This document shows positions 6,346 through 63,768 of a stretch of DNA of 64,000 bases, one piece after another; position 1 is the first letter of the stretch, and each line of letters starts with the position of its first letter. The notes beneath the pieces were generated by a model that was not told the origin of the DNA, did not search any database, and worked only from the letters and a program-made list of their open reading frames with translations. Origin of the DNA: Dictyostelium discoideum (lineage: Eukaryota). Where the stretch lies: positions 3,616,001 to 3,680,000 of the forward strand of contig CM000152.2 in NCBI GenBank assembly GCA_000004695.1, in the 5' to 3' direction. The translations under genes were made by a program, and so were the position numbers.

Positions 6346-6538
6346 TGGTTGGTATGATTTATCTCTATTGTCTATTATTTCTTTGTAGATTCTATTTTCA
6401 ATTTTAGCTACATTATACTTTTTCTTTAAAACACATCGTGTTTTATTTTTTTTTTTTTCAAATACCAATTTAATTCTAACTTTAAATATAAAAAAACAAT
6501 GATGTTCCTATATTAAGAAACAATGTTATTTATTATTT

Positions 6539-6576
<38 letters not shown>

Positions 6577-6777
6577 AGTGTGTCTTGCATGTTTATATAC
6601 AACATTTTTTTTATTATTTTATTTTAAAAAAAAAAGCGGAACTGAAATATTTGGAAATGGTTTTTCTAAAAATAGAATTTTTTGATCGGCCAAAAATGAA
6701 AAATAATTACATCATTACAATAAAATGGGAAAATAATGAGAAAACAATAGAGATTTGTAAAAATTAATACTAAAATT

Positions 6778-6818
<41 letters not shown>

Positions 6819-7223
6819 TAATCCAAGTGTGGGAAGTTTTATATTATTAAATTTACAGATAATGCAATACCACTCTTTTTTTTTTTTTATTTGGGTGTGA
6901 TAAATAAAAAACAAAAATAAAAATAAAAAAAAAACAAATGGTGGTGATTGATTGTGTGCTGTTTTCTTAAAAAATAAATAAATAAAAAAAAAAATTTAAA
7001 AATAAAAATATACTTTTTGAAATTACATATTGACACAATGATATAAATAATTTTTTTTTTTTCATTATTATTTTTATTTTTTTGTTCACTCAAAAACATC
7101 TCTATTTTATTTTATAAAAGCTACACATTGTAAATCCAAATTTTTATTACCTTTCAAGTAAATATTATTTTTTATTTTAGTTTTAAAAATATATTTTATT
7201 AACCTTTTTTTATCTTTTTTTTC

Positions 7224-7256
<33 letters not shown>

Positions 7257-7267
7257 TCTTATAAAGA

Positions 7268-7624
7268 ATGGAAAACCCATTCAATTCCAATACCCATAAT
7301 AATTATAATTATAATAATTATAATAATAATAATTATAATAATAATAATAATTATTATAATAATAATTATAATAATAATTCAAATAATAATAGAATCTCAA
7401 TTAATGACATTTTAAATGAAGGCACTGCGCCAACAACTAAATCAATTTGCCAAAACCAAATCCATGGTCCTCCATCTAAAATTATTACAAAAGTTTTGGA
7501 TTCTAAACCACCAAGGGAAGTTGTTTCACATGATAATCATTTTAATCAACCAAATAATTTAGATAACTGTTCTTTCCAAATTACAAAAGAGGTAATTAAA
7601 ATATTTAAATCAATAATTAAATAA
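7268..7624 (+). CDS. Probable first exon of a poly-Asn protein (MENPFNSNTHNNYNYNN...ITKE)
   Basis: ATG at 7268. Ends ...ACAAAAGAG|gtaatt. Downstream, 7680-7940 resembles the C-terminal exon of the gene at 63412-63858 but carries an in-frame TGA. Confidence 0.3.
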   Translation: MENPFNSNTHNNYNYNNYNNNNYNNNNNYYNNNYNNNSNNNRISINDILNEGTAPTTKSICQNQIHGPPSKIITKVLDSKPPREVVSHDNHFNQPNNLDNCSFQITKEVIKIFKSIIK

Positions 7625-7679
7625 AAAAAAAAAAAAAAAAAACCTTAAATATAATACTAATTTTGGGTGAATATAACAT

Positions 7680-7704
7680 GATAAAGTCCTATAATAATAA
7701 TTAA

Positions 7705-7739
<35 letters not shown>

Positions 7740-7940
7740 TATTTATATTGATAATGATAATAGTAATAATAATAATTTTAATTGTTATAATTCAATATAT
7801 TTTGAAATCGATAATGATACAACAAATAAAACTGAAATCTGTAATAATTATTATTGAATAAATAATAATTGTGACTTGTGTGTTGGTAGTAAATACTTGC
7901 AAAGATTGTGTTACAAGAAATTAAACATTCCTGTTTCCTA
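7680..7940 (+). pseudogene. Degenerate copy of the C-terminal Cys-motif region of the poly-Asn gene at 63412-63858
   Basis: Translates to ...NNNNFNCYNSIYFEIDNDTTNKTEICNNYY*INNNCDLCVGSKYLQRLCYKKLNIPVS, versus FNCYNSIDFEIDNNDTRNKIEMCNNYYCKNNNCDLCVGSKYLQRLCYKKLNIPVS on the minus strand at 63412. Confidence 0.45.
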
Positions 7941-8060
7941 ACTGCAAGAAAAAAAAACTCTATTTTTACCTGGACTGCTTGGTGAAATTTTTCACTTCCC
8001 ACTTGGCAAAAAAAAAAATCCAAATCAAATCAAATCAAATAAAATCAAATCAAATCAAAT
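7941..8060 (+). repeat. Flank repeat shared, inverted, with 63300-63420. Ends in (CAAAT)n.
   Basis: cattcctgtttcctaac...aaactctatttttacctg...cttggtgaaa.tttttcacttcccacttggcaaaaaaaaaatccaaa.caaatcaaatcaaat is present at both loci. Confidence 0.55.
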
Positions 8061-8184
8061 CAAATAAAATAAAATTAAATCAAATCATTCATTATTAAAT
8101 AAAGTAATAATAAAAATAAAAATAAATAAAAATAAATAAAATATTAATTTACCACAAACAAAATCTTTTTTTTTTTTTTTTTTT

Positions 8185-8330
8185 ATTATTTGTTTGTGTA
8201 TTTGTGAAAAAAAACCAAAGAAGTATAATAAAATCATTTTTTACAACATCATTGATTATTTTATGTATACCAAACAATAACACTATGGGATTTTTAACAC
8301 TTATTTATAAAAACAAATTCGCAGTGAGTT
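8185..8330 (+). repeat. Dispersed repeat fragment. The inverted copy lies at 56040-56200.
   Basis: tgtttgtgtatttgt.aaaa.aaaaccaaagaagt.t.ataaaatcatt.ttaacaacatcattgattatttt...ataccaaa.aataacactatgggattttta is shared by the two loci. Confidence 0.45.
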
Positions 8331-8483
8331 TTCACTCTAAAATGCACTGTTTAAATACCCTAGATTTTTTTTTTTTATTTTTTATAATTATAAAACAATC
8401 TATTTAACCAAAAAAAAACTAATTTTAAATAGTCAAAATTAAATAATAATTTTCTTTTAAGTTTGGCGCCAAATTTTTTTTTT

Positions 8484-8735
8484 TTACATGGTACAGTGTG
8501 ATACACCATCACCTGAATCCATAACGATACCAGTGGTACGACCAGATTCATATAATGATAATACATCTTGAATGGCGACATACATAGCTCGAGTGGTGAA
8601 AGTTTCAAACATAATTTGGGTCATCTTTTCTCTATTTGCTTTTGGATTTAATGGTGCTTCAGTTAAGAGAACTGGACGCTCTTCTGGTACAACACGTAAT
8701 TCGTTGTAGAAAGTATGATTTAATAACAATAACAA
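8484..8735 (-). pseudogene. Actin gene fragment (residues ~88-170)
   Basis: Translation [74 protein letters not shown] is canonical actin. It lacks the N- and C-terminal parts. Confidence 0.7.
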
Positions 8736-9000
8736 TAATAATTATCTACATTTTTAAATCTTCACAAACTATGAACTCATTTCTTTTAATTATTGTTTTT
8801 TTTTTTTTTTTAATTATTGTTTTTGCTAAAATACCAATTACTATTATTATTACTATTACTATTACTATTACTATTACTATTACTATTACTATTACTATTA
8901 CAATTCGATTGGTGTTATAATCTGAAGTTTATTAAATTTCTATTTGAATCCATAACCTATTCTTATTTTGTAACTGATTCAGGTTTGGAACATTATTAAA
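8736..9000 (+). repeat. Flank of the actin fragment, containing (ATTACT)n at 8836-8906. An inverted copy lies at 59480-59790.
   Basis: aactctattttaataatgttccaaac...ataggttatggattcaaatagaaa.ttaataaacttcagattataacaccaat.gaat is present in reverse complement at 59486-59600. Confidence 0.5.
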
Positions 9001-10047
9001 ATAGAGTTTGTGAAGTTAAATAATTTATCGCTGAAGTTGTAGTTCAAATCTGACAACCAAAATTTATATTTTTTTTTAATTTTTTATTAGTTTTTTAACA
9101 TCGATTTAATTTTATTTATTTTTAATATGAATTTAATATAGATAAATAGACCATGATTAGATTGATTCGTTTTATGGTTGTCAAATTTTTTTATTTTGTT
9201 AACGTTGTGATACTTTTTTTTTTTTTTTTTAGGTTTCTTGTTCTTTTTATAAATTTTTTTTTATTTATTTCAATTTCCAGAATTTTATTTTTTCAACAAA
9301 AATAGGATTCACTCCAATAAAATATATTTTTTAAAAATATATATTTCTTAATTCTTACAATTAATAAGTTGAAAAAAAAATTAAAAATTAAAAATTAAAT
9401 CCAAATAAAAACTATTTTTAGAAATAAAAAAAATAAAAATAAAAATTAAATAATTAAGATTAAAAATTAAAAACACAAAAAAAATTTATACTTTTTTTAA
9501 TTTTTCTTTTTTTAATTATTTTAAATAATTTAAAAAATAATTTTGAATGTGACCAACACTTGGTCCCGTTGATGTTGCTGTTTTTGCTATTAATTTTGAT
9601 TTATTTTTTTTATTTTTTTTAAAGTTTATTTAAAATTTCCTCATTTATGTTTATCACTTTTATTTTTTTTTTTTACATATAATTTTTTTTTTCAAGAGAA
9701 GTAATTTATTTTTTTTTTTATATCTAAAAACTAGGAAAAAATATTAAAAAATAAAAATAAAAAAATCTTTTTAATTAAAAATATTTATTCGGTCATTCAT
9801 TTTTCTTTTTTTTTTTTAAAAAAAAAACAATAAATAAATAAAGGAAAAAAAGAAATTTATAAAACTTAAAAAAAAAAAGTAAAAAAGTTTTTTTTGGAAT
9901 TTATTTTTTTTTTTTTATATTTATAATTCAACAACAATAATCAAAATCAACAACATAATGTCTAAATGATCAAATAATTCTCTGGGTGAAGATATGGTCA
10001 ACCAAAATATAAAACAAGTAAAAAAAGTTCAATATAGATGTAAGTTG

Positions 10048-10078
<31 letters not shown>

Positions 10079-10749
10079 GAAAAAATAAAAACAAATAAAA
10101 AATAAATAAAAATAAAAAATAAATAAAATAAAAAAAAAATAAATAAATAAATAAAATAAATAAATAAATAAATAAATAAATAAATTAAAAAATTAATGTA
10201 TGAATTAGTAAATAAATAAATTAATATTTTTACTAATTTTTTTTTTTTTTATTTTCAAATTAGAGAATGATCATTTGGTATTACAGAGAAACTAGAAATC
10301 CAGCGATAGACTTGTTCAAAATCTTTTTTAAGCCAATACAACGCTCAATTAAATTATTATTTTTTAAAATCACATATTCACAACTATACAGTGTCAATAA
10401 TCAAAGCGCTTTGAAAATTTAAAGTACATAACAAAAAAAAAAAAAAAAATTAAACAGTGCAGGAATTGATTTTTCAATTAAATGAAATTAAAAAAAGAAA
10501 AATCTCACTATTTCCACGATTATTGTTTCTATTAATACTATAACCTCATTATTATTATTACCATTTATATTAATATTATTATAATTATTTTTATTATTTT
10601 TTTTTTTTTGTTCACCCCCAATAAATTTATCACAAAATATGTCCTCATTCATTAGTTATTAAAGAAACTAAAAATAAAATAAAACAATAAATATAATTAT
10701 AATAACAAAATAAAATAAAATAAAATAAAATAAAATAAAATAAAATAAA

Positions 10750-11247
10750 ATGTTATTAGAAATTCTCAACAGTTTAGTATCATTTTTTAGTAAGATATTC
10801 TCATTATTTGAAGGTAAAAAAGATATAAGAATAATAATGATTGGACTTGACCGTGTAGGTAATCCAATACTTTTATATAAATTAAAAGTAGGAGATGTTG
10901 TTTCAACCATTCCATCCATTGGATTCAATGTTGAACTATTGAATATAAAAATTTAAATGATAGTTTAGGATGTAGGTGGCCAGTATTAAATTGGCACATT
11001 ACAGAAACACTATAATCATGGTTCAAATGAAATCATCTTTGTAGTGGATAGAACTAATTGTGAAAGAATTAATCAAGTTAATGAAGAAGTTGATAATCTT
11101 TAATTCAAGATGAATTAAAAGGTAAATTCTTTAAATTTAAATTCAATTAAAGATAGAAAATGGTATATTCAACCATGTAGTGCCATTAAATCAAATGATA
11201 TATATGAAGGATTTGATTGGATTGCAAATTCACTCAATAATGAATAA
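10750..11247 (+). pseudogene. ARF (ADP-ribosylation factor) family GTPase pseudogene, copy A
   Basis: [34 protein letters not shown]...VSTIPSIGFNVE...IFVVDRTNCERINQV...NKQD...WYIQPCSAIKS...YEGFDWIANSLNNE, with in-frame stops and deletions. An (AAAAT)n tract precedes the ATG. Confidence 0.55.
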
Positions 11248-11639
11248 ATAAATGAAATAAATTAATAAATAAAAACCTTGTATATTTATATATATATATA
11301 TATATAGTAAAAATAAATAAATAAATAAATAATGTTAAATTAAATTTTTTATTTTATCTTTATTTATTTTATTTTAAGTTTTTTAAGTTTTAATTTTACA
11401 CATATGTGATTTGTGATTTTAAATTCACATTTTCTTTTTATTTTATTTGAAACAGTTTTTTACACCAACTTCTTTTAATTTTTTATGATTTTCTTTTGCA
11501 ATAATCATCCTAACAATATTTTTAAAAAAAAAAAATAAAATAATTGGTTAGTTTATATTTTTTTAATAAAAAAAAAAATAATTTCTTACAATGAGTTGAT
11601 TTTAATTTGATTTCAAAAAAGAGAATAGAAATTTGAAAA

Positions 11640-13561: not shown

Positions 13562-13992
13562 AGGTTAATGAAATTTCATGTTCAACACTTTTTAATATAC
13601 CACTAGATAACCAATATAAAATTGAATTAACAATAATAAATCAACGACTGAAAAAAAAAAAATGCAAATGCACTTATACGTTTTAGGTTGTAGTTTGCTT
13701 ATATGCAAAGTCAGTAAAATTTATCAGTGTTCTTTATTTAGTATAAAAGTTGTAATTAATAATTAATAATTAATAATTAATAATATATATATATATATTA
13801 TAATATATTAATCAATTTCATTCAACCAAACCAAAACAATCGCCCAAAGAGGTGGTAATGGTCCTCATTCATTAGTTATTAAAGAAATAAAAAATAAAAT
13901 AATAAAATAAAACAAATAAATATAATTAAAATAATAACAAAATAATAAAATAAAAAGCAATAAAATAAAATAAAATAAATTAAAAATAAAAT

Positions 13993-14493
13993 TTTATCAG
14001 AATTTTCAACAGTTTAGCATCATTTTTCTGTAAGATATTCTCATTAGTTGAAGGTAAACCAATACTTTTATATAAATACAAAATAGGTGATGTTGTTTCA
14101 ACCATTCCAACCATTGGATTCAATGTTGAACTATTGAATATTAAAATTTATCGATGACAGTTTGGGATGTAGGTAGTGAGTATTAAATTGACACATTATA
14201 GAAACACTATTACCATGGTTCAAATGCAATCATCTTTGTAGTGGATAGTACTGATCGTGAAAGAATTAGCCAAGTTAAAGAAGAAATTGATAATCTTTTA
14301 ACTCAAGATGAAATAAAAGGTATACAAATATTAATATTTGCAAATAAACAAGATATGGATAATGCAATGAATACTGCAGAAATGTGAACTCTGTAAATTT
14401 AAATTCAATTAAGGATAGGGATCAACCATGCAGTGCCATTAAATCACCACACGGTATATATGAAGGATTTGATTGGGTACCCAATAATTAATA
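13993..14493 (+). pseudogene. ARF-family GTPase pseudogene, copy B (N-terminal P-loop region deleted)
   Basis: Same gene as 10750 and 27332. Retains [66 protein letters not shown] and YEGFDW. Contains stops. Followed at 14625-14668 by the conserved flank ttttacacatatgtgatttgtgattttaaatttacat. Confidence 0.5.
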
Positions 14494-14671
14494 AATAAAT
14501 GAAATAAACAAAATAAATAAATAAAAGCCTTGTATATATAGTAAAAATAAAATAAAGATATAATAAAAAATTTTAATTTAACATTTATTTATTTATTTAT
14601 TTATTTTATTTTTAGTTAAGTTTTAATTTTACACATATGTGATTTGTGATTTTAAATTTACATTTTTTTTT

Positions 14672-17406
14672 TTAAAATTTTTTACCTATAAATTTTTTCA
14701 CACGAAAAGGTATTTTAAAGTAATAGGCAAGAGCACCGATAGCAAGAGCACCACCAACACTACCAATTGTAGAACCTATTATTAAACCATTTGATGGTTT
14801 GGATGATTTAGTTTCAACATCTCTTTGACTAACGTTTGGTGATGGAGATAATTTAATTTCTTCAATTGTGACATTATATTGAAATGATGTTGAGTTAAAT
14901 AGGAGATATAATACTCCTGATGTATTTTTCACACTTGAACCGGAATGGCATGATAAACAATCAGTATTACTATTTGTAATATTAGTTTCACTTGAATCAC
15001 TATCATCAAGTATTTCATTTGGTGATAAACTACATTCTAAATTACATGAAAGAGGAACAGTTTCTGATGAAACTGTTAAGCTTGCATTGAGAATATCTGT
15101 AAAACTATAACCACGAATTATTGCTAAAATACCTTTTTCAATTTTATTTTCAATGGTTGGAATTTCTGAAATCATTGGTTTTATATAGGTCAATGTTGTA
15201 CTTGGTCCTGAACGAACTCCAATGAATGTTGTAACAAAGAGTGAACTCTCTCTACTTTCATCTCTAACTATTAATATCTTTTCATCTTGAGCAAATACTG
15301 TGGTATTTTTATTATTTGATTTTACATTAACTTTGAATTCTTTGTCACTTGTCAATAAATTCTTACCAGAAACTGTGATAAGACCTCCACAAGCAAGTGT
15401 TTTATTATCTTTATTTGTTATACGATAAATGACAGGAGGTAATGTTAAATAAAATAATGAATCCATATAATTACCATCTACAGTAATATTAATTGGGCCA
15501 TTTTCATATGAATCCAATATTTTAATAGTTAATTGATGATCTTCTAATTCTTGAATTTCTGATGAAATGTCACTACCATTTAAATAAACTTTAATTAATG
15601 ATGTTGAATTACCAAAATTATTACCGTGTAATTCAATATTAGTTCCATCATCAGAAATTGTACGATTCTCAACTTCTGGTGGTGCATATGAGAATTGATC
15701 ACTGACTGTCTCTGAGTTTAATTTGAATATAAATTGTTTATTAATACCAGTACCGTATGGTGTTGGACATGTTGTTTCATAGTAACTAGAATTTGATGAT
15801 GGTATTGAACATGGTGAGGCTGATGATGAATCACCAACAGTAATACTTGGTGCTGATGAACTAATTGTACAATCCATATAATATATTTCAATATTTAATA
15901 TTCCATTTGATACTGTTGGTCTATTAATTACATTTACTGATAATGATGCTGAAATTGAAAGTGTTTTTGCGGTAATACCAGAACGAGTGAAATTAATATT
16001 AAATGATCTACATCTTAAATGAGGTAATTCAAATGTTACACTCTTTTCATCAGATGATGATACATTAAATTGGCTAATGTTTGTATTTTTAATTCCATCA
16101 CCATATAATTGAATGGATGATTCGTTATTTGTACCAAGATTTGTACCAATTAATGTAACGATACCATTAGAATATGATCCACTTGATAATGTCGGAATAT
16201 TATATGTAAATGATACACCATTAGGACTTGTTGAATCACAACCACCGAAATTAACGTTAACTGGTAAGTTTTTACCACCCAATTCATTTGCATCCAATTT
16301 ACATTCCAATTCAGTTGTTGTTGATTTAATAAATTTACATACTTTATCACCAATTGTAATTGATGGTGTCAATGATGAATTTAAAGTTGAAGATAATTTT
16401 TCACCTTTAATTGTAACAATACCATCTAAATGATTTGATACTGATGATATTGATGTTATTATTGCTGGGAAACAATGAATATAATTCTTTTCTATTGAGA
16501 CCTCATCTACGGTAATATTAACAGACATTGGACCGGGATCAACTCTATTATAGTTATTCACTTGAATTTGTTTATGATTTACTGAAATGATAAAATTGGG
16601 TTGGTCAATACCATCAAAAGAAACCTTAACCAAGTCTTTATCTGTAAAGAAGTTATCACCATTAATTGTTATTATTTGTTTTGATGAGTCTGAGACAGAG
16701 CTTGATATTATAGGCGATTCGTATGAAAATGGTACAGGATTATCCCCAGTTTCATCATAGTACAACCTAAATTTTCCGGATCCTGGTGGAAATGTTACAG
16801 TAATATTATTACAGTCAAAAGATGGATCAGAGAAATTACCTTTAACAACAAAAGGTTTATTTACATCAATGGAATTAATAAGGAAATTAGGACCACCAAA
16901 TAATCTTAAATATGAGCCAGTAATGACTATATCTTCACCAGATGTTTTTGGTTTTTTACTATATTTCAAATTGTATACTTTTGGATAATATACTAAACCC
17001 GAAGCATCAAATGTACAATCCTCAACAGTATTTGATTTATCTCTAACACATACCTTACTGTCTATACTACCCCATAATCTTGAGAATGGTTCATCTGAAT
17101 GGAATAAACAATGTCTCTCTCCATCAACTAGAGAACAATTGAAATAATTTGGTGCCATTTCAGTTCTGGGTTCTTTTTCGTTTTTATACAAAATTAAACG
17201 GGTAGAATATGGGAGATTACTATTAAAAATTAATGTAAATGATTTATCATCATATATTGCATCTAATAAAAAAAATTAATTACATAAACAAATTATTATA
17301 AAGAATTAAAAATTTAATGATACTTACCTATTGGTGTTGGAGGATTCATTGAATATCCTGATATAAAGAACAAAAATAAAATCAGTAATATTATTTTCTT
17401 TTCCAT
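14672..17406 (-). CDS. tgrC1: IPT/TIG-repeat single-pass membrane glycoprotein of the tiger (Tgr) family. Short cytoplasmic tail, so TgrC1-like. Two exons, 889 aa.
   Basis: Exon 1 is 17406..17328 (ATG, then signal peptide [26 protein letters not shown], phase 1). Donor is GTAAGT and the intron is 17327..17263 (65 bp). Exon 2 is 17262..14672, in phase. Many NxS/T sites and repeated ~90-aa beta-rich modules with ITG.NLG motifs. C-terminal [25 protein letters not shown] followed by a 14-aa tail. Head-to-head with the paralog at 17930. The paralog number is tentative. Confidence 0.6.
16113..16433 (+). other. Antisense ORF inside tgrC1 exon 2, not a gene
   Basis: Fully embedded opposite a well-supported CDS. 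Confidence 0.1.
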
Positions 17407-23700: not shown

Positions 23701-24749
23701 TTAATGAATATCCTATTGATCTCATAAACTATTTTAATTTTTAAAAAATATTATAAAAAAAAGATTAATATGAAAAAAAAAAAAATGGAATAAAATAAAA
23801 TAATATAAAAAAATTAAAAACTTACAGATTTAGTTAAAATATTAACGAGTTGAGAGTTATTTGATTTATCATTAATTTGTATCTTTTATCTCTTGCTACT
23901 TGTGGTGGACCAAAATCAATTCAAAATCAACCAATTTCTTAACAGTGCGAATAAGACAAAAAGTATTTTCCAATACTTTCTCGAACCATGCAATATCTTG
24001 GATATCATCACTGTCATCTCTAAACCTTTTCTTGAAATTCTTAAAGCATCCTGTGATTAAGGTGAAAATAAAAAAAATAAAAAGGAAAAATAAAATTTTT
24101 TTTTTTTTTTTTTTTTTTCGACAAACGGAGCGCCAAAAATACAAAATGATTTGAAAAATAAAAATGTAATCATTCTAATTATATTTAAAAAAAAAAAAAA
24201 TTGGGTTAAAACAAAGGAACGGAATATATTTCTGATTAATTTTGTTTTAATATTTATAAACTGTTATAAAAAAAAAAATAAAAAAAATAAAAATAAACTT
24301 TTCTTTTTTTTTTCTTGTTATTTTAAAATAAAAGAAATTGCTAGAGTATAAAAATAATAGAAAGGTGTTTTAAATCATTATAAAACAAGAATATATAAAA
24401 ACAAATAAAAATGATAGGACTACAGTCATTCATTAGTTTTATAATTTAATAATAAACAATCATTTATTTATTTGTTTAATAATTTATTTATTTAAATAGT
24501 ACAGCTTATTCACAAATACCCAAACATCGATAATCTTAATCTACAATAATAATTATTAGAATAAAATAATTTAATAAATGATCAAACTGTTAGTCAATTA
24601 CCATCACCACCACCACCACCACCAACTCGTGATTCCAACACTATCTCACCAAACTCAACCATCTATTCTAACTTAACCATAAAACACCAGAAAAAAAAAA
24701 AATTTTAACAAATAAATTGAAAAAAAAAAAAAAAAAAAAATTATAATGA

Positions 24750-24850
24750 AATTCTAAAAATTGAGGCTATCTGGTGAATTGGCTTGGGTGTGGTGTATAA
24801 TTTATATGAAAGGTGTGTTTTTTTTTGTTGAACCCCTATTTCTAAAATAG
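24750..24850. promoter_or_regulatory. Second copy of the conserved tgrB upstream block
   Basis: ctaaaaattgaggctatctggtgaattggcttgggtgtggtgtat...gaaaggtgtgtttttttttgttgaacccctatttctaaaa. The palindrome arm is degenerate (GGTGTG where the first copy has GGGGTA). Confidence 0.45.
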
Positions 24851-24962
24851 AAATGCTTTTTTTTTTGTAAATAATATTTTTTTTTTTTTTTTTTATTTTA
24901 ACCTCAAATTAATTTTTTTTTTTTTATTATCGTTTTTATTTTAATATTATAATTTTAACAAA

Positions 24963-26043
24963 ATGAAAGTTTTATATATTTATATATTGTTATTGGTTTG
25001 TAAATTTTTATTTGTGAAATCAAGTTGCTCTTTAAAATATGAAAAAATAGAATGTACAAATGAATTTGAAACATTTGAATTATATAATGGTACTGTTGTC
25101 AATGTAAAAATGGATACAGTTGGAGGGAGATATTATTTTAATCCACTAAAGTTTCCTTACAAGAATTTGCTATGCGATTTAAATATTTTAATTAAATTCA
25201 CACCAGAAATCCCATCATTCCCAAATATACCCACAACAGGTGGAGAATTCGGGTTCACCTTCAACTTTCCTTGCACCTATAAGCGAACAGTCAAAGAAAT
25301 AGGAACAGAAAGAACTTTATTATCTCTCAGTTTTGATACAAGCAAAAATCAGTTCGTTACTTACTTGGATCCAGGGTGTGGTGCTTTAAATTTGTTTTTT
25401 GAAAATATCCAGATTTTGAATTCAACTTTTGAAACTGGTGCCATACCCAATGTACCAATTCTCGATGATGATAAAGGTATTTTAACTATTCAAGGTCGTA
25501 ATCTCTACAACACTTCAATTAAAATTTATTCAACTAACATTCTGAAAGACACCAACCCTATTGGTGCACTAGATACTTCCCATTCTTCTGTCACATTCTC
25601 CGCTGAAGAATTTTTAACTCCAAATAATTGGACAATTGAAGTCTCAATATGTGGCTCATTTTATAAAAGCTATTCCTACCCATATTTACCGGTGCTCATC
25701 AAAATGGAGGGGGCACTTAATGATAATGGTTGTAATATGGTATTTACTGGAAAGCATTTAAGACCAAAACACAATGTTACTGGTACTTTTGGTAATAAAA
25801 CTATTGAGTGTCTCACAACCAATTCTTCAAAAAGCATAACATGTACCATTCCAAGTCTTAAAAGTTATGGTTCTCTTGGTTATGATATTCCTGTAACAAT
25901 TACTGTAAGTAGGATACAATATATATTATAAATACATATTGTTATCATATAACCAATTACTAATTATTTTTTAAATAATATTTTATTTAGATTGATGGAG
26001 AATACAAATCAAATACAATTAAAATATCATATGATATTCCAAG
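24963..26043 (+). pseudogene. Truncated tgrB-like copy: exon 1 plus the first 53 nt of exon 2 only
   Basis: Exon 1 (24963..25904) is ~90% identical at the protein level to tgrB1-like exon 1 (MKVLYIYILLLVCKFLFVKSSCSLK...PVTITVSRIQY), with a GTAAGT donor. Exon 2 starts at 25991 (IDGEYKSNTIKISYDIP) and homology ends at 26043. Confidence 0.6.
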
Positions 26044-26874: not shown

Positions 26875-27331
26875 GAAAATCTAAAAATATTAAATAAAAT
26901 ATTATTTAATAAATAAAAAATAATAAAATAACAAAATAATAAAAAAATGTAATAATAAATAATAATAAAAAAAAAAATTTTAATATTAATAATAATAAAA
27001 AAATAAATTGATTTGTTTTAACTTTTTTTTTTGGTGGCATTTTTATTTTTTAAGTGCATTCACCACGTGCACAACCAAATAGTCAACAATCACTAACAAT
27101 TTATAACATGTTGGTTCTTGTAGGTGAAAAAAACTGGAAAAAAAAGATACAAAAATGAAGAAAAAAAATAAATTTTAAATCATTCAAAAAATAAAACAAA
27201 TAAATAAATATAAATAAATAAAAATAAATTAAACAAATTTATAAATAAATTCATTTAATAAATATAATTAAAGTAACAAAATAAAATAAAATAAAATAAA
27301 ATAAAATAAAAATAAAATAAAATAAAATAAA

Positions 27332-27893
<562 letters not shown>

Positions 27894-28105
27894 ATAATAA
27901 AAAAAAAGTTCATATATTTTTATTATTATTTTTTATGTGTTTGTTTATTTATTTACTTATTTATTTTATCATTTAATTAATTATTTATTAGTCCGTTTGC
28001 TTATTAGTTTATTTATTTATTTTTTTATTTATTTTTTTATTTATTTATTTTAAAAGTTTTAATTTTATAAAATGTGATTTTAAATTTACATTTTCTTTTA
28101 ATTTT

Positions 28106-28228
28106 TTAAAAGTTTTTTCTTAAATATTTTTTTGCGCGACTTATTATTCTAAAAATAAAGAAACAACCAATGATAGAACAACTAGAAGCAATACCAATAA
28201 ATACAAAAGCTGCAGTTAAACCAGCTGA

Positions 28229-28260: not shown

Positions 28261-29240
28261 CTTCTTCTTCTTCTTCTTCTTCTTCTTCTTCTTCTTCTTC
28301 TTCTTCTTCTTCTTCTTCTTCTTTGCCAATAATATATTGTGTTAATGATATACCCTTAAGACTTATTGAATTACAACCACCGAAATTAACGTCAGGTGAT
28401 ACTATTTCACAAAATTCATTTACATCTAATTGACATTTCAATTGAGTTGTTTTTGAATTTATAAATGTACATTGTCTATCACAAATTGTAATAGATGGGA
28501 TAAATGATGAATTTAAAGTCGAAGATAATCTAGAACCATTAATTGTTATAATACCACCTAAATCATTTGGAAATAATGATACTGAATTTACTATTGCTGG
28601 GAAACAATAGGTATAATTCTTTTCATTTGAGACACCATTTACAGTAATACTAACAGATATTAGACCAGGATCAACTATATCATAGTTATACACTTGAATT
28701 AGTTTATGTTTTACTGAAATAACAAAATCAGGTTGATTAATACCATCAAATAAAACCGTAACCAGCTTTTTATTTGTATGGAAGTTATCACCACTAATTA
28801 CTATATCTTTTGATGGGTGTAAATAAATACTTGATATTTTAGGTGATCCATATTAAAATGGTAAAGGATAATACCCGTCTTGGTAAAGGACTACCCGAAA
28901 TTCTCGAGAATGGTTCATCTGCATAGAATAAACAATATCTCTTATTATATATATAGATGACAATCAAAATAATTTGGTACCATTTCATATCTGGGTGTTG
29001 TTTCGTTTTCATACAAAATGAAACGGGTAAAATATGGGGAATCACCGTTAAAAATTAATATAAATGATGTTATATCATATTCTACTTCTAATATAAAAAA
29101 TTAATTAATTTCATAAACACATTATTTTAATAAATAATTAAAAAATGATACTTACCAATTGGATTTGAAAAATCCATTGAATACCTTGATTTAAAAATTG
29201 AGAATAAAAATAAAATCAGTAATGAAATTTTCTTTTCCAT
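28106..29240 (-). pseudogene. Internally deleted, frameshifted tgrC-like copy with a (GAA)n poly-Glu insertion before the TM
   Basis: Exon 1 mimic at 29240..29155 (MEKKISLLILFLFSIFKSRYSMDFSNPIG|gtaagt). Exon 2 is broken by stops. The ORF 28106-28693 joins a mid-protein segment (NGVSNEKNYTYCFPAIVNSVS...VNFGGCNSISL) directly to a run of ~30 Glu ((CTT)n on the plus strand at 28231-28322) and a TM plus short tail. Confidence 0.55.
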
Positions 29241-29989
29241 TTTTATTAATAATTATTAAAAAAAGAAAATTAAATTAGAGAAATAATAATTAATATTGAG
29301 TAATTAATTAATTTTTTTTTTTTTTAAAAAAATAATAACAGCATGGGTTGGTAAAAAACTGTGTGAGATTAGTTGGCATGTGGAAAAAAAAAATATATAA
29401 TAATAAAACACAAAGAATTTCAAAAAAAAAATAAAAATATATAAAAAATAATAAATGTATGAAATAAAAAAAATGTTTTTTTTTTTTTTTTTTTTTAATG
29501 ATTAATTTTTTATTATTAATTTATTTACCTTATATATTTTATTAGTTATAAATACAAAAAGTATTTTTTAAAAATTATAATAATATTCATTTTAATAATA
29601 ACAATTTTTTTTTTTTTTTTTAATTTATTATTATTGTCATTTTCATTTTCTTTATTTTCATTATTATTATGATTTATTATAATAAATCATAGAAATAATG
29701 TAAATAGAGATATTCAAAATGACAACAATAATAAAAACGTTTTTCACACCAAAAAGAATTAAATTTTTTTTTTTTCTTTTTTTTTTTTTCTTTTTTTTTT
29801 TTTCTTTTTTTTTCAAAAACCTTCAAATTTTTTTTTTTTTTTTCATTTTCCATCATCTTTATAATTAATAATAAATGTAATTTTTCTTTAAAAATAATTC
29901 ATTTTTTATTTTTATTTTTTTTATTTTATTTTTTAAACCGTACATTTTATTAACTGTTATTAATTAATTATAAATTACTATCATATGGA

Positions 29990-44590: not shown

Positions 44591-45074
44591 ATTTCTTTTT
44601 TGTTTGTTTTATTACTATTCATTTTTTTTTTTTTTTTTATAATCAAAAACTTTAATTATTTATTATTCATTTTTTGTAAAGGTTGGTCTGATTTGAATGT
44701 TTATCAAATCAACAAATAATCAGAGTTCCTTTTTTTAAACCAATTTTTTTTTTTTCAATTCAATAAAAAAAAAAAAAAAAACACATCCAAATAAAAGAAA
44801 AAAAAAAATCACTAACTAACCAAATATATAAAAAGAAAATTACAACACAATCAAACTATTAAAAATGAAATTATTAATTATTTTATTAATTTTAAAAATT
44901 ACTATTAAAAAAACAATAATTTTCATATATAAATATATTACAGTATTAATAATTATATTAAATAAACATTTTATTGATTTTCCAATAATTATTCTATGAA
45001 ATATTATCAAAAAAAAAAAAAAAAAAATTAGTAAATTATTTAATTTTTTAATTTTAAATAAATGATTTACTTAC

Positions 45075-45646
45075 CGATAAAATCAAGAACACCATAAAAA
45101 TTATGTAAATGTTTATCAACTGGTTGATAAATTATCAAATTAAATGGACCACCATCTATATCACAAACTGGGCATATCCAAAGTCCTGTATGACATGAAG
45201 TAGTAATGTAAGCCTTTGGTTATTGAAATTTTTTTTTTTTTTTTTTTTTTAATATTAGTTAAATTAATTTTAGATTTATTTTTAAAATAAAATTAAATAT
45301 TTGAAAAAATACATACCATTAGATCAAAGCACTGATTATGCTGACAAAAAATTGTTTTGGCTGGAATAACTATTGGTTCATGGGTTAACGGACATATTGA
45401 TGACTCTGAGTCATATTGATTTTCATTTTCCACATCATCATTCACTTGACTAATGTGATTTCCTCCTTGATGAAATTCATCATTGCCATTGGTGTCTTCA
45501 AAATCATCTTCACTAATTTCATCATCTGAGTTACCATCACCAAAATTGTCATCATTATAATTGGATGGGGAATTCCTTGAAATAATATGCTTTAAAAAAT
45601 TAGAAGCGGTTTTTATTTATATCTATTTTTAAAATATACCTACCAT
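45075..45646 (-). CDS. Mini SP-RING (PIAS/Siz/Nse2-type SUMO-ligase zinc finger) protein, ~139 aa, 3 exons
   Basis: Exon 1 is ATG only (45646..45644), donor GTAGGT. Exon 2 is 45589..45317 (HIISRNSP...SICPLTHEPIVIPAKTIFCQHNQCFDLM), donor GTATGT. Exon 3 is 45213..45075 (AYITTSCHTGLWICPVCDIDGGPFNLIIYQPVDKHLHNFYGVLDFI, phase 1 out). This matches the SP-RING consensus CPL....I..P.R...C.H.QCFD......W.CPVCD...P...L..D. A terminal exon after the GTAAGT at 45074 adds 1 codon (E, then stop), per the 139-aa count. Confidence 0.5.
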
Positions 45647-46631
45647 TTTATAATTTAATGTAACTTTTTTTTGAAAAAAAAAAAAATAAAAAATAAAAAA
45701 TTAATATTAATTAAAAATAAAAAATAAAAAATAATTTACTATTATACTTTTTTATATTAAAAAACAGATGGAATGTGAAAAAAAATATTAATTATTTAAA
45801 TAATTAAAATAAAAATTACACAAAAAATAATTGTCAAACCAATATTTTTTTTTTTTTTTTTTATAAATACAAAAAATTAAAATCACAGTTTTTTGTGATT
45901 TTACCCCAAAAACCTTTAATTGACATTGTGGGTGTGTGTTTATATTAATTGAATAAATAATTATATTATTTTTAATTATTTATTATTATTATTATTATTA
46001 TTTATTAAATTATACTACATAAGTAATGTGTTTTTTTTTTTGCTAATGATGTGTTCGTAGTGTGGTCGTACAAACATATTAAAAAAAAAGGAAAATTGAA
46101 ATATTATTCATATTAAAAAAACAAAAAAAAAACTTTTTACTTTCCCCATCTTTTTAAAATTAGGATTCATACCCCAGCATGTTGAATATATTCATTATTA
46201 AAAAAAAAAGATAGAAAATAAGAGGTACCAAAAATAAAAACTAATAATAAACATATTTCAAACAATGTAATATTGATTTTTGAATAAATTTTTTGAATTT
46301 AATTATTTCTTTTTTAGTTTTCACTCTTTATTGCGTGGGTTTTACATGTAGGAATTAAACAGTCTTAATACTTATAATGATCTATATGCTTTAACACACC
46401 AACAAACCAAGATGGCCATCTTATCTATTTGATTATTTTGGTTATTCGAATTATTATGATGATGGTGATATTGTTGCACTATATTTAATTCAAACAATCA
46501 AAATGCTAAGAATCACTCTTTGTTTACTGTGGTATTGTTTTCATAGCTTTTTGGTATTGTAAAAAAGAAAATTAAAAAACAAATAAAAAAAAAAAAAATT
46601 ATAAATTACTTTTTTGGGTTAATGTTTCCAT

Positions 46632-56035: not shown

Positions 56036-56862
56036 CTTTTCCATTTTTTTCTATTATGATGAAGTTGGAATTTGTTTATATAAGGGTAAAAATCCCATAG
56101 TGTTATTTTTGGTATATCGAAAATAATCAATGATGTTGTTAACAATGATTTTATAAAACTTCTTTGGTTTTGTTTTACAAATACACAAGCAAATAATAAA
56201 AACAAAAAAAAAAAAAAAAAAAAAAAAAACAAAACAAAAAAAAAAAAATGATTTTGTAAGTGGGTAATTAGTATTTATTTATATTTATTTATTTATTTTG
56301 TTTTTTTTTTAAAAAAATTAAATAGAAAAATAAGTTTAATGTAAGTGAATGTAGTATTTTTGGGAGATTGGATCACAAATGATGTTATAAAATACAAAAA
56401 AAAGATCGGTTATAGAAATGTTTGGATTTATTTCATTCAATTTTTTTAATATTATTCAATTAATTTTATAATTGTGTATGAAGAAATGTTTTTTTTTTTA
56501 TCTGTGCATTTTTTTTTTTCCTTTTTTTTCCTTTTTTTTTTAGTTTATAAATTAAAAAAATTAAAATATAATGGTAGATGGTAGTATTTTTTTAAAAAAA
56601 TAAATAAAAAATATTTTTCCAGGTCCTAAAAATAGTTGAATGTGTTAATGTGGGAAATTTGTTTTTTTTTTTTTTTTTTTGAACTTAACCCTAATTTATC
56701 AAATAATAACAAAAAAAAAATAATCATTTCTATTTTTTTTAATTTAATTATTTTTTGTGTATTTTTTTATTTTCTCTATATAAATCAATGTGATAAAGTA
56801 AATGGTTAAAATTAAATAAACACATCATGTGGGAAATAAAAAAAATAATTTAAATTATTATT

Positions 56863-58133: not shown

Positions 58134-58485
58134 AAATTGTTTTTATTTAAAAATTAGAATAAAAAAAAAAATATCTTGGAATGATATCAAATCTGATTTC
58201 GAAATTTTTTTTTTTTTTTTTTTTTTATTTTTTTATTTTTTTTTTATTTTTTTTTTTTTTATTTTATTAAATTTTCATTTTTTTCATTTTTTTTTTTCCC
58301 ATACCACTTTTTCTTTATTTTTTTTTTTACAAGAGAATTTTTAATTTCATCATCAACAATAACCAGATCATCACCGCCACCAACACACCATCATTTCAAT
58401 CATTGGAAAATGGAGATAAAGTAATTTTATTGATGACATCAATTTCAGAAGAAGATAAAAAAGAAAACAAAATATAAAACAACTA

Positions 58486-58519
58486 AAAAAATGGGTACCA
58501 AATCATTTAGAGGTAAGTT

Positions 58520-58559
<40 letters not shown>

Positions 58560-58810
58560 AAAAAATATAAATAAATATTATCTATAGAAATAATTAATTT
58601 TTACTAATATTTTTTTTTTTTTTTTTTTTTTTTTCTTAAAGATTTAATTTTATTTTAGAATTACAGAAGCATTAAGAGCAAGTGGTTAGGTTTGTGCTGC
58701 CATTGATTCTGTTATTCGTTCTGGGTACACTCGTGCTTTTATGCCATTCGTCCACCTGCTCACAATGCTGGTCATTATTGTAGCCTACTGGCTGCTTTTT
58801 TGGAAGTAGT
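58486..58810 (+). CDS. Possible small tail-anchored membrane protein. The exon structure is unresolved.
   Basis: ATGGGTACCAAATCATTTAGAG|gtaagt (MGTKSFR) at 58486. GC-richer downstream block: ...EALRASG, then an in-frame TAG, then VCAAIDSVIRSGYTRAFMPFVHLLTMLVIIVAYWLLFWK*. A consistent splice path that avoids the TAG was not found. Confidence 0.2.
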
Positions 58811-59479
58811 TCAAATAGTAGTATTCAAACCGATCATCAACAAATTAATCACAATAATATAATACTAATAATAGTAATAATGGTAATAATAATATATTAT
58901 AATAATATAATTTTAATATTTATTTTTTTATTTTTATTATTATTATTAAAAAAAAAAAATAATAAAAAATAATAAAGTTATGTCCAAAGATTAGTAAAGG
59001 ATTAAATTGTTACTTTGGAGAATGTCATATAGTTGATAATAAAACCATTGTTTTAGTATTTGGTTGATCAAATGTAATAATATTTCCACGAAAGCTTCAG
59101 TGGTGGAAGCAATATGAGTTGTAGCAGCTTCGGTGGCAGAACATTCAATGGTGAAACATCAACAAATCAAACAGATGTCGACAGTGAATACAATTTCAAT
59201 CATTTATTATTATATCAATTTGTTGTAATTTAGGATTATTCAACGCAACAGTTTCAAATTAACACAACCAATTTATAGAACTGATTTCAATCCAGTTTTG
59301 TATCAACTCTCGATATTTAGATTCATTCAATACTGCAAAACGAAGTGATGATTCACTACCAGGTCGACTCAACAGGTTAATTCTGTTTCAAATTAACATA
59401 ATCAAATCCAACAACAGCAACAACAACTACAGGAAATACAACAGCAACAACAACTTCAGCAACAATTTATTATTTAACT

Positions 59480-60298
<819 letters not shown>

Positions 60299-60593
60299 AA
60301 ATAAATTATCTAAATTTAGAATATATATATAAATAATAATAATAATTCTTTTTTAAATCTGAAAATTAATATTACTTTCTTTTTAATTAAAATTACCTTT
60401 TTTTATTAATTTTAAACAAATTAAAACTATAATCAATATTAAAATAAAAAAAAGTAATATTGAAACTCAACAAAATTAAAGTAATAAAATATAAAATTAA
60501 AATGAAAGAGATATGATTTATTTTTTTATTATTTTTTTCATTTATTTTTAAAGATTAATAATTACATTTGGTTGAATTATTATTTATAAATAA

Positions 60594-61598
60594 TTACAAT
60601 TTTCTAAACTCTTTAGCATCATTTCTTTCTTCTAATTCCAACATATCAAGTATTTCTTGAGGTAATGGTACTGATTGTGCTTCTTCATAAATATGAGGTA
60701 ATTGTAGTGGTGCTTGTGGTTGAAGGCTTTTTATTGTTGATGTTTTTGTGGTTGTTGTTGTTGTTGTTAGTGGTCTTGGTGATGATGATGATGATGATGA
60801 TGATGATGGTTCATCAGAGTTTGGGTAATATGGTGTTGGTGAATATGGTTCAAAACTATTTGAATTCGATGTTTGTTGTTGTTGTTGTAATGGAGGTGGA
60901 TAATATTGACTATAAGATGTTGGTGGTGCTGATGGTTTTGGTGAATTTGGTTCAAAACGATTTGAATTTGATGTTTGTTGTTGTTGTTGTTGTGATGAAG
61001 GTGGATAATATTGTGAATTGTCAGCAATAGTTAAGGTTGGTTCAACTTCTGTTTCACTATTTGAAATTCTTTGAATTGTTGTTGGGAATGATATTTTTAT
61101 ATAATATTTATAGTAATTATTAACAAGTTCACGTTCAAATTTCCATACAATTCCTCTTGGGCCATAATGTCTATTTACCTCTATTAAGAACGTTTTTATA
61201 TTATTCTTATATATTGCAGCTGAAATACAAAATGAGCATGATAATAAAATAGTTCCAATTATTGAAAGCATTGATCCAAGTATAATCAATGCAAGACTAA
61301 TTTTTCTTTTTTCTTCAGATTCTTTGGTTACCATTATATATTCTTCATAATTTTCATCAAGTTTCCAAGTATTATCAAATTTCAAAACTGAACCTGCAAC
61401 AACCATTCCTAAACCACCAAACAAAATTATAATAAAAAAAAAAAATTTATAATTGAATGAATTAAATGTGTTTAATTTTTTAATAATTAATAAATATTCT
61501 CTTTTATTTATTACTCCTTCTAATCTAGTTTGATATTCTTCAATGAATTTATTATTTGTTTTTGCCACCCCTGTCTGAGATATTCTGATTTGTTCCAT
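60594..61598 (-). CDS. Hypothetical two-TM membrane protein with a Pro/Tyr/Gln-rich tail (YYPP and PPxY-like repeats), 334 aa
   Basis: ATG at 61598. TM helices FFFFIIILFGGLGMVVAGSVL and ISLALIILGSMLSIIGTILLS. Tail with repeated SQYYPP...QQQQQTSNSNxFEP units. Confidence 0.5.
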   Translation of the reverse strand: MEQIRISQTGVAKTNNKFIEEYQTRLEGVINKREYLLIIKKLNTFNSFNYKFFFFIIILFGGLGMVVAGSVLKFDNTWKLDENYEEYIMVTKESEEKRKISLALIILGSMLSIIGTILLSCSFCISAAIYKNNIKTFLIEVNRHYGPRGIVWKFERELVNNYYKYYIKISFPTTIQRISNSETEVEPTLTIADNSQYYPPSSQQQQQQTSNSNRFEPNSPKPSAPPTSYSQYYPPPLQQQQQTSNSNSFEPYSPTPYYPNSDEPSSSSSSSSSPRPLTTTTTTTKTSTIKSLQPQAPLQLPHIYEEAQSVPLPQEILDMLELEERNDAKEFRKL

Positions 61599-63299
61599 TA
61601 CAATTTTTTTTTTTTTTTTTTTTTTAGATAAACAATATCTCCTCTTTTTTTTTATTGTTATTTAAATTCAGAACATTTTGTTTTTTGTTGGTGTTTTTTT
61701 TGTTTTTAATAAAAAAAAAAAAAATTAAGAAAAAAAAAAAGAAAAAAAAAAAACAGAAAAAAAATAGTCCCCAAAACTCAAGACTGGTCTGAAAGTCAAC
61801 TTTTTTTTATTTTGTTGTCATTTGATTCATTTCTTTGAATACAATTTTTTTTTTCCTTCCAAAAAAAAAAATAAAAAAAAAAAAAAAAAAAATAAAAAAA
61901 AAAATAAAAAAATAAAAAATTAATTCAAATCAGGAGTGACAGATATTTTTTTTTTACGATATTTTTAAATTCGAACTATTAAATTTTTAGTTTTTCAATA
62001 AAATTTAATCACCATGTTCGCAAATTTTTTATTTTTTTTATTTATTTATTTTTTAAGGTTTGGGTTAGAAATTAATTTGGGAAAAGGAATTTAAAGAGAA
62101 TTCTGTAGAATTTAATGAATGGGTACGTTTGTATTTGTGCTGTCTGAGTATAAAATCAATGTATTCGTATTAGTCTTTCTGTCGTGTATCTTTCATCGCC
62201 AAAAACGTGATAATACTATGGTTGAACAGTTTGATTTGATAAATGTAAATTTGAAACCTGTCTGTATAAACATGGTTGAATTCACATCTGATAAATCGAC
62301 TTTTAAACCACATGGAAATGACTTGGACCCAATGGATAGAGATTTCCTCCAACGGTAAATCTTTGAAACTCCAACTATGATTAACATTAAAAAATTGAGC
62401 ATCTTAAAATATACTACTACTACTACACTACTACTACAACTATATCTATATTTTCTCTAATTATACCACTACCAATACTATTTCCATCAATTGAATTAAA
62501 ATTTGTTTGTGTGCTTGGGACTACACTATATTAGTTTGATTGCTTTACCCAATCATTTTTCCAGAGTCAACATTGACCTCCATGAGTTTTGTGAGGGCTA
62601 AAATCGTTCTCTTGATATTATGAGAGAAATTTTGAAGATGAAGTTATAATAGAGTTTACTAATGCGTTTAATATCTGTGTTTGAGATTGGGGTTAGTTTG
62701 AGGTGAGAGGATTGTAGTTTTACCAAATATATTGTTAAAGTAGTTGAATTTGTTTAGTGTGGTGATGGAAATGTAAATGATTATATTGTTGATTGAGGTG
62801 GAATCTGTTGAGTTTGAGACAACTGCAGAATTGGTCCATTGGTTTTTTTATTTTATTTTTTTAAATGTTTTATTTTTTACAAAGGTTGTAATTAATATAT
62901 TTAAAATGTTATTATTTGTTATTATTATTAGACAAAAGAAAAAATTTTAAAAAAAAAAAAAAAAAGTTTTAAAATATAAAAAAAAAAAAAAAATTTGGCT
63001 CCAAACTTAAAAGAAAATTACTATTTAATTTTGACTATTTAAAATTAGTTTTTGTTTTGTTAAATAGATTGTTTTATAATTATAAAAAAAAAAAAAAATA
63101 ATTTTAGTGTATTTTTATTTTTTGCTCTGCTCGTGTATTTGTAAAAAATTCGGCAGTCTAAAATTCACGAGCAAATAATAAAAAAAAAAAATAATAAACG
63201 TAAACAATTATTAATAAAAAAAAAAAAAAAAAAAAAAGATTTTGTTTGTGGTAAATTAATATTTTTTTATTTTTTTTATTATTATATTTTTATTATTAT

Positions 63300-63411
63300 T
63301 ATTTATTTAATGAATGATTTGATTTGATTTGGTTTGGATTTTTTTTTGCCAAGTGGGAAGTGAAAAATTTTTCACCAAGCAGGGAAAAATAGAGTTTTTT
63401 TTTCCATGAAG
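63300..63411 (-). repeat. Inverted copy of the flank at 7941-8060
   Basis: See 7941-8060. Confidence 0.55.
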
Positions 63412-63635
63412 TTAGGAAACAGGAATGTTTAATTTCTTGTAACACAATCTTTGCAAGTATTTACTACCAACACACAAGTCACAATTATTATTTTTACAAT
63501 AATAATTATTACACATTTCAATTTTATTTCTTGTATCATTATTATCGATTTCAAAATCGATTGAATTATAACAATTAAAATTATTATTATTATTATTATC
63601 ATTATCAATATCAATATCATTATTATTATTATTAA

Positions 63636-63688
<53 letters not shown>

Positions 63689-63707
63689 TTAGTATTATTA
63701 TTATTAC

Positions 63708-63768
<61 letters not shown>

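Follow-up and report, generated by a model that had tools for sequence, protein, structure and literature searches.

The 64,000-nucleotide window of Dictyostelium discoideum AX4 chromosome 3 analyzed here (all positions are window coordinates) contains two arms that are reverse-complement collinear over at least 1 kb of non-repetitive sequence and are a genuine inverted segmental duplication. With a probability of about 0.8 we read the pair as a segmental duplication, inverted and since decayed, that took place within tgrBC, a hypervariable allorecognition locus. The two arms extend as follows:

Left arm: 6445-9047, 2.6 kb
Right arm: 59446 to ~65170, ~5.7 kb, of which 59446-64000 lies inside the window

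Homology between the arms

We analyzed the homology of the arms by self-BLAST of the window with DUST low-complexity masking switched on. This analysis identified five collinear blocks in which ~7.5-9.0 kb matches 59.4-64.0 kb in inverted orientation, with E values ranging from 3e-51 to 1e-157:

7549-7791 with 64000-63745, inverted, 87.5% identity, E 7e-85
7593-8190 with 63760-63213, inverted, 80.4% identity, E 1e-157
8353-8485 with 63114-62982, inverted, 93.2% identity, E 3e-51
8489-8740 with 60074-59825, inverted, actin coding sequence, 94.0% identity, E 2e-105
8895-9044 with 59602-59446, inverted, 89.2% identity, E 3e-51

A preliminary description of the window, made from its letters, had proposed an inverted segmental duplication and called for a self-comparison. 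With masking the arms matched outside the (AAT)n and (CAAAT)n tracts, the proposal was borne out by collinear blocks in unique sequence, and all the elements that had been listed for the two arms were found in the order and orientation claimed.

The right arm runs past the end of the window and was read onward with 7.4 kb of a 99.7%-identical AX2 assembly (locus L001). Over the window, AX2 contig CM142509.1 of assembly GCA_054883475.1 is 99.7-99.8% identical to AX4. With this extension, left-arm positions 6468-7391 matched ~65149-64231 at 88% identity (95-96% in the unique parts), and the homology took in exon 1 of a gene referred to below as the poly-Asn/Cys gene together with ~800 bp upstream of it. 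We also aligned the left arm with two right-arm orthologous loci from two divergent D. discoideum strains (L002 and L003). The breakpoints of the left arm, 6445 and 9045-9047, were the same whether defined against the AX4/AX2 right arm or against these orthologues.

Between the arms the alignable columns comprised 2124 matches, 286 mismatches and 554 gap columns. Ungapped identity was 91.1% over 6468-8485 and 78.3% over 8489-9047, the latter figure including an unalignable flank, and the unique blocks reached 93-96%. The longest exact matches were 84, 84, 78 and 75 bp. By convention, segmental duplications have an identity of at least 90%, and by these alignments the arms appear as an old, eroded duplication at that threshold.

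Could the match be a product of chance, of low complexity or of assembly? The region is 77% A+T and rich in (AAT)n, and without masking it gave thousands of spurious matches. Against this, the masked blocks have E values of 1e-51 to 1e-157 in unique sequence that includes actin coding sequence, and an independent long-read assembly, that of AX2, contains both arms in the same orientation and with the same ~53.1-kb spacing. An assembly artefact is therefore excluded, and we give explanations of this kind as a whole practically no credence.

The left arm had been described as a compressed ~1.3-kb version of a ~4.4-kb right arm. It is indeed the shorter of the two, but both arms are larger than was thought. 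The compression itself is real, and its cause is mainly one 2.9-kb deletion of sequence corresponding to 60075-62981 of the right arm.

Position of the arms in the tgrBC locus

Exact protein look-up named three genes of the window, DDB_G0280675, DDB_G0280677 and DDB_G0280721. The first of these is the open reading frame (ORF) that adjoins the left arm on its left, the second belongs to the left arm and the third to the right arm. Since tgrB1 is DDB_G0280689 (PMC9073555), gene numbering puts it between DDB_G0280677 and DDB_G0280721. As had been claimed, the arms bracket a tgr/CHD region: ORFs for Tgr proteins with TIG domains lie between them at 14.7-28.7 kb, two of them as a divergent pair at 14.7-20.4 kb, and the gene of a CHD helicase (chdB) follows at 32.9-39.7 kb. 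Published markers of the tgrBC locus are wacA, chdB and DDB_G0280717 (PMC12745789). Because of these gene look-ups, the tgrB1 numbering and the Tgr and chdB genes between the arms, we conclude that the arms sit inside the published tgrBC locus on chromosome 3. From gene numbering, the right arm would be at or just past the marker DDB_G0280717, at the right edge of the locus. The AX2 assembly used here is evidently the AX2-214 genome of the same study, in which AX2 and AX4 are 99.5% identical at the tgrBC locus with no rearrangement (PMC12745789).

The right arm as the parental copy

The part of the right arm inside the window has the following features:

59845-60505, plus strand, right actin pseudogene with frameshift and stop, from Pfam Actin and BLAST to act7
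60594-61598, minus strand, DDB_G0280721, 334 aa, 'transmembrane protein', intact, from exact look-up
61599-62981, right-arm-specific non-coding stretch without left counterpart, orthologous in L002/L003 up to 62263
63412-63849, minus strand, poly-Asn/Cys exon 2, intact with stop codon, from ORF and AX2 gene model
63850-63957, minus strand, poly-Asn/Cys intron
63958-64000, minus strand, 3' end of poly-Asn/Cys exon 1, the rest of the exon and the promoter lying past the window end

The L002 and L003 loci carry this arm collinear with AX4 on both sides. Inner collinearity reaches the kinase and AAA_23 genes at 50.9-59.0 kb, and outer collinearity reaches act7 apart from a 3.8-kb indel. The right poly-Asn/Cys gene is intact, with two exons and 276 aa in the gene model reconstructed from AX2. 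DDB_G0280721 is found in the right arm only, within the segment deleted from the left arm; its orthologues in other strains are 81-85% identical, and it has distant relatives with Pfam PF10256. Besides DDB_G0280721, the left arm has lost 1.4 kb of non-coding DNA and the remainder of the actin pseudogene with this segment. As the actin homology of the right arm runs on across the point of the left-arm deletion, the left arm is a deleted derivative rather than the right arm an insertion derivative. Because the right arm keeps its flanks on both sides in L002/L003, has intact genes and has the longer actin fragment, the data identify it as the parental, orthologous copy and the left arm as a derived, dead paralogue.

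The same flanks bear on another origin of the pair, a single inversion through staggered breaks in which the sequence between the nicks is duplicated, inverted, at both ends. Such an event would place inverted copies exactly at the ends of one interval, as found here, and the locus is break-prone. It predicts, however, one ancestral neighbour for each copy, whereas in L002/L003 the right arm has both ancestral neighbours, the inner one (kinase side) and the outer one (act7 side). These two loci are also without the AX4-specific shared characters described below and appear to be pre-duplication. We therefore consider a staggered-break origin improbable.

At this edge of the locus, a gene of ~517 aa lies in the 3.8-kb insertion between the right arm and act7 in L002 (3427-5055) and L003 (2278-3909). 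It is absent from AX4/AX2 and is another presence/absence variant.

Anatomy and decay of the left arm

The features of the left arm are, from left to right:

6445-7267, plus strand, duplicated upstream/promoter region of the poly-Asn/Cys gene, 95-96% identical to the right arm over 6700-7267
7268-7592, plus strand, left poly-Asn/Cys exon 1 (DDB_G0280677; ACTFIT_011101), from ORF and protein look-up
7687-7941, plus strand, left exon 2 remnant, dead, translated in the splice frame of the right copy
7942-8165, 3' flank with expanded (CAAAT)n, aligning to right 63411-63219 at ~82%
8166-8320, 155-bp piece without a collinear right-arm counterpart, 87% identical to 56216-56068
8353-8485, unique block before the deletion junction, matching right 63114-62982 at 93.2%
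8489-8719, minus strand, left actin fragment, pseudogene, actin codons ~89-165, Pfam Actin E 1e-26
8720-8894, T-rich flank and (ATTACT)n, ~90% identical to the L002/L003 right-arm orthologues
8895-9047, inner unique flank, 89% identical to right 59602-59446

About 90 bp separate the end of the duplicated upstream region from the start of DDB_G0280675, the divergent neighbour. Left exon 1 is 96.4% identical to the right copy in its unique part and keeps 18 bp (HDNHFN) that have been lost from the right copy. Left exon 2 has a shortened poly-Asn tract and two in-frame stops, TAA at 7702-7704 and TGA at 7855-7857, the second of which removes one Cys of the C-terminal C-x4-C-x4-C-x2-C motif. The exon is open in the right copy and in the L002/L003 orthologues, both stops being private to the left arm, and both public annotations of the left copy run into the intron and end there. 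Taken together, these data mark the left copy of the poly-Asn/Cys gene as a pseudogene. In the 3' flank, the (CAAAT)n microsatellite shows a 45-bp expansion relative to the right arm.

At the junction of the 2.9-kb deletion (left 8485/8489), the match to right 62982 abuts actin sequence matching right 60074 across the 4-nt filler 'ACAT'. A short filler with at most 1 nt of microhomology looks like the product of end joining. The left actin fragment that follows has an identity of 94% with the right fragment and of 95.7% with act7. Beyond it, 8720-8894 is unalignable to the AX4 right arm and ~90% identical to L002/L003; in this stretch the left arm therefore keeps the older state. We also considered a micro-inversion of 8166-8352 relative to 63090-63230 and rejected it, the alignment score of 36 not being significant against a shuffle maximum of 39.

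Origin of the actin fragments and timing of the inverted copy

Just past the window lies a full-length actin gene whose position and strand are those published for act7 (chr3:3684122-3685252, Watson strand; PMC2441452). By BLAST, the right fragment has two segments: the first corresponds to act7 codons ~89-194 (95%), and the second, after an internal deletion of ~400 bp, to the act7 3' end plus ~200 bp of 3' flank (85%). In the inner flank of the right arm, 58457-58881 resembles 66487-66946 and is a degenerate copy of the gene upstream of act7. Because the act7 3' flank and the fragment of the upstream gene are co-duplicated in the same order, the sequence indicates that the actin fragment arose by a DNA-level direct duplication of the upstream gene together with act7. 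A processed (retro-)pseudogene is argued against by the co-duplicated upstream gene fragment, the ~200-bp 3' flank and the lack of a poly(A) at the end of the actin fragment. This case rests mainly on the upstream fragment, as the 3' flank alone could be an untranslated region.

The upstream gene has a mini first exon with a splice donor (ATGGGTACCAAATCATTTAGAG followed by GTAAGT, encoding MGTKSFR). We found this arrangement at 58457-58881, at ~66487-66946 and 70003-70115 of the AX2 extension and, more weakly, at 10000-10064. The MGTKSFR peptide looks like an N-myristoylation start.

We then aligned the fragments of the AX4 left arm, the AX4 right arm, L002 and L003 with functional actins. In all four, the 5' truncation falls at the same place, the internal deletion has the same junction and one Asn is changed to Thr; the actin fragment therefore predates the split of the strains. 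A 2-bp deletion and a CCA->CGA (Pro->Arg) change are common to the left and right fragments of AX4 and missing from L002 and L003. Over 6700-7945, identity is 95-96% from arm to arm, versus 86-94% from arm to L002/L003. Because of the actin changes shared in AX4 only and the higher arm-to-arm identity over 6700-7945, we infer that the inverted copy was made in the lineage of the AX4 haplotype, after its split from the L002/L003 haplotypes.

Short actin pseudogenes of 41-135 aa (act34_ps to act39_ps) have been catalogued (Joseph et al. 2008, PMC2441452). Like these, both arm fragments are short, partial actin domains near act7 on chromosome 3. The catalogue gives no origin for its entries, whereas here both pieces are shown to be one act7-derived fragment, re-duplicated later as the passenger of a larger segment. 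Nested duplications around act7, with actin pieces carried along as passengers, thus explain two short actin pseudogenes of chromosome 3.

Proposed history of the arms

The history that we propose has three steps. An older, partial duplication of act7 at the DNA level would have left a 5'-truncated, internally deleted actin fragment beside DDB_G0280721. Next, in the lineage of the AX4 haplotype, an inverted copy of a ~5.7-kb segment would have been placed next to DDB_G0280675, at a distance of ~50 kb. This segment took in DDB_G0280721, the actin fragment, flanking sequence and the poly-Asn/Cys gene together with its promoter. The left copy would then have decayed through the 2.9-kb end-joining-type deletion, the two nonsense mutations and growth of the microsatellite, while the right (parental) copy would have undergone changes of its own, namely an 18-bp coding deletion and the replacement of 59602-59825. 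The copying step is most economically read as error-prone repair of a double-strand break next to DDB_G0280675, in which template switching or ectopic synthesis-dependent repair would have inserted a templated, inverted copy. A process of this kind, with recurrent local double-strand breaks that are repaired non-homologously, has been proposed for the tgrBC locus (PMC12745789).

The arms are a mosaic, and several observations weigh against this history. In 6468-6700, in 8721-8894 and at the HDNHFN codons, the left arm is closer to the other strains than to the AX4 right arm, and later changes in the right arm are therefore required. The 155-bp piece at 8166-8320 is missing from the right arms of AX4, L002 and L003 and could be a patch insertion, a conversion or a template switch, or reflect two parallel losses. 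Its match at 56068-56216 is 3.2 kb inside the inner boundary of the right arm, and the piece is contiguous with arm flank in paralogous modules of other strains, L008 (17249-17458) and L009 (19109-19344). Gene conversion between the arms could mimic the signal of recent sister copies. Finally, the time of copying and the state of the empty site are inferred, as is the mechanism of copying, which sequence alone cannot demonstrate. The left-arm locus was read in AX4 and AX2: exact protein look-ups with the 165-aa ORF of the flank and with the left poly-Asn/Cys product matched AX2 only, and homology searches with a poly-Asn-trimmed query and with DDB_G0280675 gave one match each.

The arms and inversion of the intervening segment

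The preliminary description had suggested that the arms could mediate inversion of the segment between them. In its strong form, the arms would be active substrates of non-allelic homologous recombination (NAHR) that flip the ~50-kb segment carrying tgrB1/C1 and chdB, with inversion polymorphism among strains as a result. The geometry is suitable, with inverted arms that bracket the segment and a 1.25-kb block that is 95-96% identical, and inversions have been reported at the locus (PMC12745789). The longest perfect tract, however, is 84 bp and not hundreds of bp, and many indels as well as the 2.9-kb deletion break up the arms. Moreover, the orientation in AX2 is that of AX4, the right arm keeps AX4-like neighbours on both sides in two divergent strains, and the genes of the left arm are dead, hence there is no selectable switch. 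We consider active flipping of this kind quite improbable.

A looser form, in which the arms mark or occasionally mediate a ~50-kb inversion (tgrB1/tgrC1, chdB) or fold back and seed breaks of the hotspot, also seems unlikely to us. Were it true, inversion would suppress recombination at the allorecognition pair and help to hold matching tgrB1-tgrC1 alleles together in a supergene-like manner. Inversion is excluded for AX2 and for the right-arm junction of the two strains, and no flipped orientation of the interval was seen among four genomes or junctions (AX4, AX2 and the L002 and L003 right-arm junctions), rare isomers being possible. With patchy identity of 80-96%, indels, perfect tracts of at most 84 bp and an unchanged orientation in AX2, the suggestion that the arms mediate inversion found no support.

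A comparison with inverted low-copy repeats that recombine by NAHR leads to the same view. As with human int22h at F8 and the duplications at Drosophila inversion breakpoints, inverted copies of unique sequence flank genes tens of kb apart. The int22h and Drosophila breakpoint repeats are long, at least 97-99% identical, and their recombinant isomers have been observed. In contrast, the arms described here are 2.6 and 5.7 kb and 80-96% identical, with perfect tracts of no more than 84 bp and no isomer in the assemblies examined. Today the arms are passive relics, very weak recombination substrates at best.

Mobile elements and the published hotspot

It had also been asked whether either arm matches a known Dictyostelium complex repeat. 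We considered the known element classes DIRS-1, Skipper, TRE5/TRE3, DDT, Tdd and thug. In favour of a mobile element or 'complex repeat', related modules (ERF4-like gene, actin, zf-MIZ and poly-Asn-like gene) recur in the locus of other strains. The content of the arms, however, is host genes and their flanks. Their ORFs encode no reverse transcriptase, integrase, transposase or tyrosine recombinase domain (the only Pfam match being Actin), and the annotated genes of the arms contain no transposable element (TE) domain. TRE elements target tRNA genes, and the 64-kb window has none. Rfam matches are likewise absent from the arms, the sole one being a below-threshold, actin-derived match to mir-3533 inside act7. 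No terminal repeats were noted in alignments reaching the arm ends, although no search was aimed at terminal repeats or target-site duplications. The variable sequence of the locus was reported to have no TE enrichment, no extra-locus source and no extra-locus matches larger than a gene (PMC12745789). A mobile-element origin thus appears very improbable, and the proposed match to a complex repeat gained no support.

The modules of other strains, elsewhere in the tgrBC locus, are much more diverged. They contain an ERF4-like paralogue, zf-MIZ, an actin of full length and a poly-Asn-like gene of 695 aa that shares the C-terminal motif and has a conserved block in its promoter. Two of them, L006 and L007, are a second ERF4-like/actin module of the same strains. 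We examined them as candidates for the left arm of those strains and rejected them: identity reaches only 68-78%, their actin is full-length, and they have the 695-aa paralogue. The occurrence of related, diverged modules in other strains fits the repeated local shuffling that has been published.

The tgrBC locus was described as a 'hypermutable hotspot' with rampant intralocus duplications, inversions and partial gene fragments (PNAS 2025, PMC12745789). The duplication reported here resembles these events in being at the same locus (AX4 chr3, wacA, chdB, DDB_G0280717), in its local origin, in its shuffled neighbour genes and partial fragments, in having breakpoints both within and between genes, and in the lack of TE involvement. 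The donor, the right arm, is only 50 kb away, and the content includes the actin fragment and the truncated poly-Asn gene. The portion of the hotspot study available to us treats the locus as a whole and names tgrB/C, gta and arr duplicates, and within that portion the arm pair, its polarity and its relative date are not mentioned. The arm pair accordingly adds a new and well-resolved case to a phenomenon that has been published, and reveals no new kind of element or mechanism.

What is added here is the specific arm pair with its exact breakpoints and its parental/derived polarity, the nested history that would lead from a partial act7 duplication through inverted re-duplication to decay, and evidence that the arms are poor recombination substrates. 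The pair offers a fully dissected, relatively dated example of an allorecognition locus shuffling itself, and the breakpoints at 6445, 8485/8489 and 9047 could be inspected for traces of repair in the hotspot. In practice the finding matters little; near tgrB1/C1, the arms make read mapping and the calling of synteny harder.

The poly-Asn/Cys gene and its upstream block

The C-x4-C-x4-C-x2-C motif of the poly-Asn/Cys gene ('...CNNYYCKNNNCDLCVGS...'; 63412-63600 on the minus strand, left remnant 7760-7941) is kept in the orthologues and in the 695-aa paralogues. No relatives of this motif were found at E<=1e-3 among 1.84 billion representative proteins, and it has no Pfam match. The C-terminal motif thus defines a lineage-restricted orphan family.

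The best-conserved part of the arms is a stretch of ~450 bp upstream of this gene (6815-7270; right ~64350-64830 in the AX2 extension), which is 95-96% identical between the arms and 92-95% identical to other strains. Discrete conserved pieces of it are present in the distant paralogues L006 (16080-16680) and L007 (15860-16450), the coding sequence being otherwise unalignable. Such conservation is unusual for the A+T-rich intergenic DNA of Dictyostelium, and it suggests that the block may be a promoter, a 5' leader or a small exon. Rfam gave no match to a non-coding RNA in the block at E<=1.

Paralogous blocks elsewhere in the window

The interval from arm to arm is a patchwork of paralogous blocks:

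10641-11439, 13861-14672 and 27222-28132, three-copy block, 73-75% identity
17647-19013 and 24692-26041, paralogous pair, 87% identity
16196-17653 and 28331-29472, paralogous pair, 73-80% identity
11698-12376 and 31117-30426, inverted paralogous pair, 70% identity

These blocks cover Tgr (TIG-domain) and Arf-like genes, which fits the tgrB/C and arr duplications described for the locus. The zf-MIZ gene near act7 (AX2 extension ~70249-71407) has a paralogue in direct orientation at 44977-45937 of the window (73-77% identity); tblastx found no match to a zf-MIZ pseudogene in the inner flank of the right arm.

Near the left end of the window, 1447-1495 and 2893-2941 match perfectly over 49 bp in inverted orientation and correspond to the 5' coding ends (MTSIFGDLILQDG...) of head-to-head paralogous genes. 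A third, diverged copy begins at ~2325 (2293-2373). The confinement of perfect identity to the 5' ends of the head-to-head paralogues suggests that local gene conversion may have occurred there.

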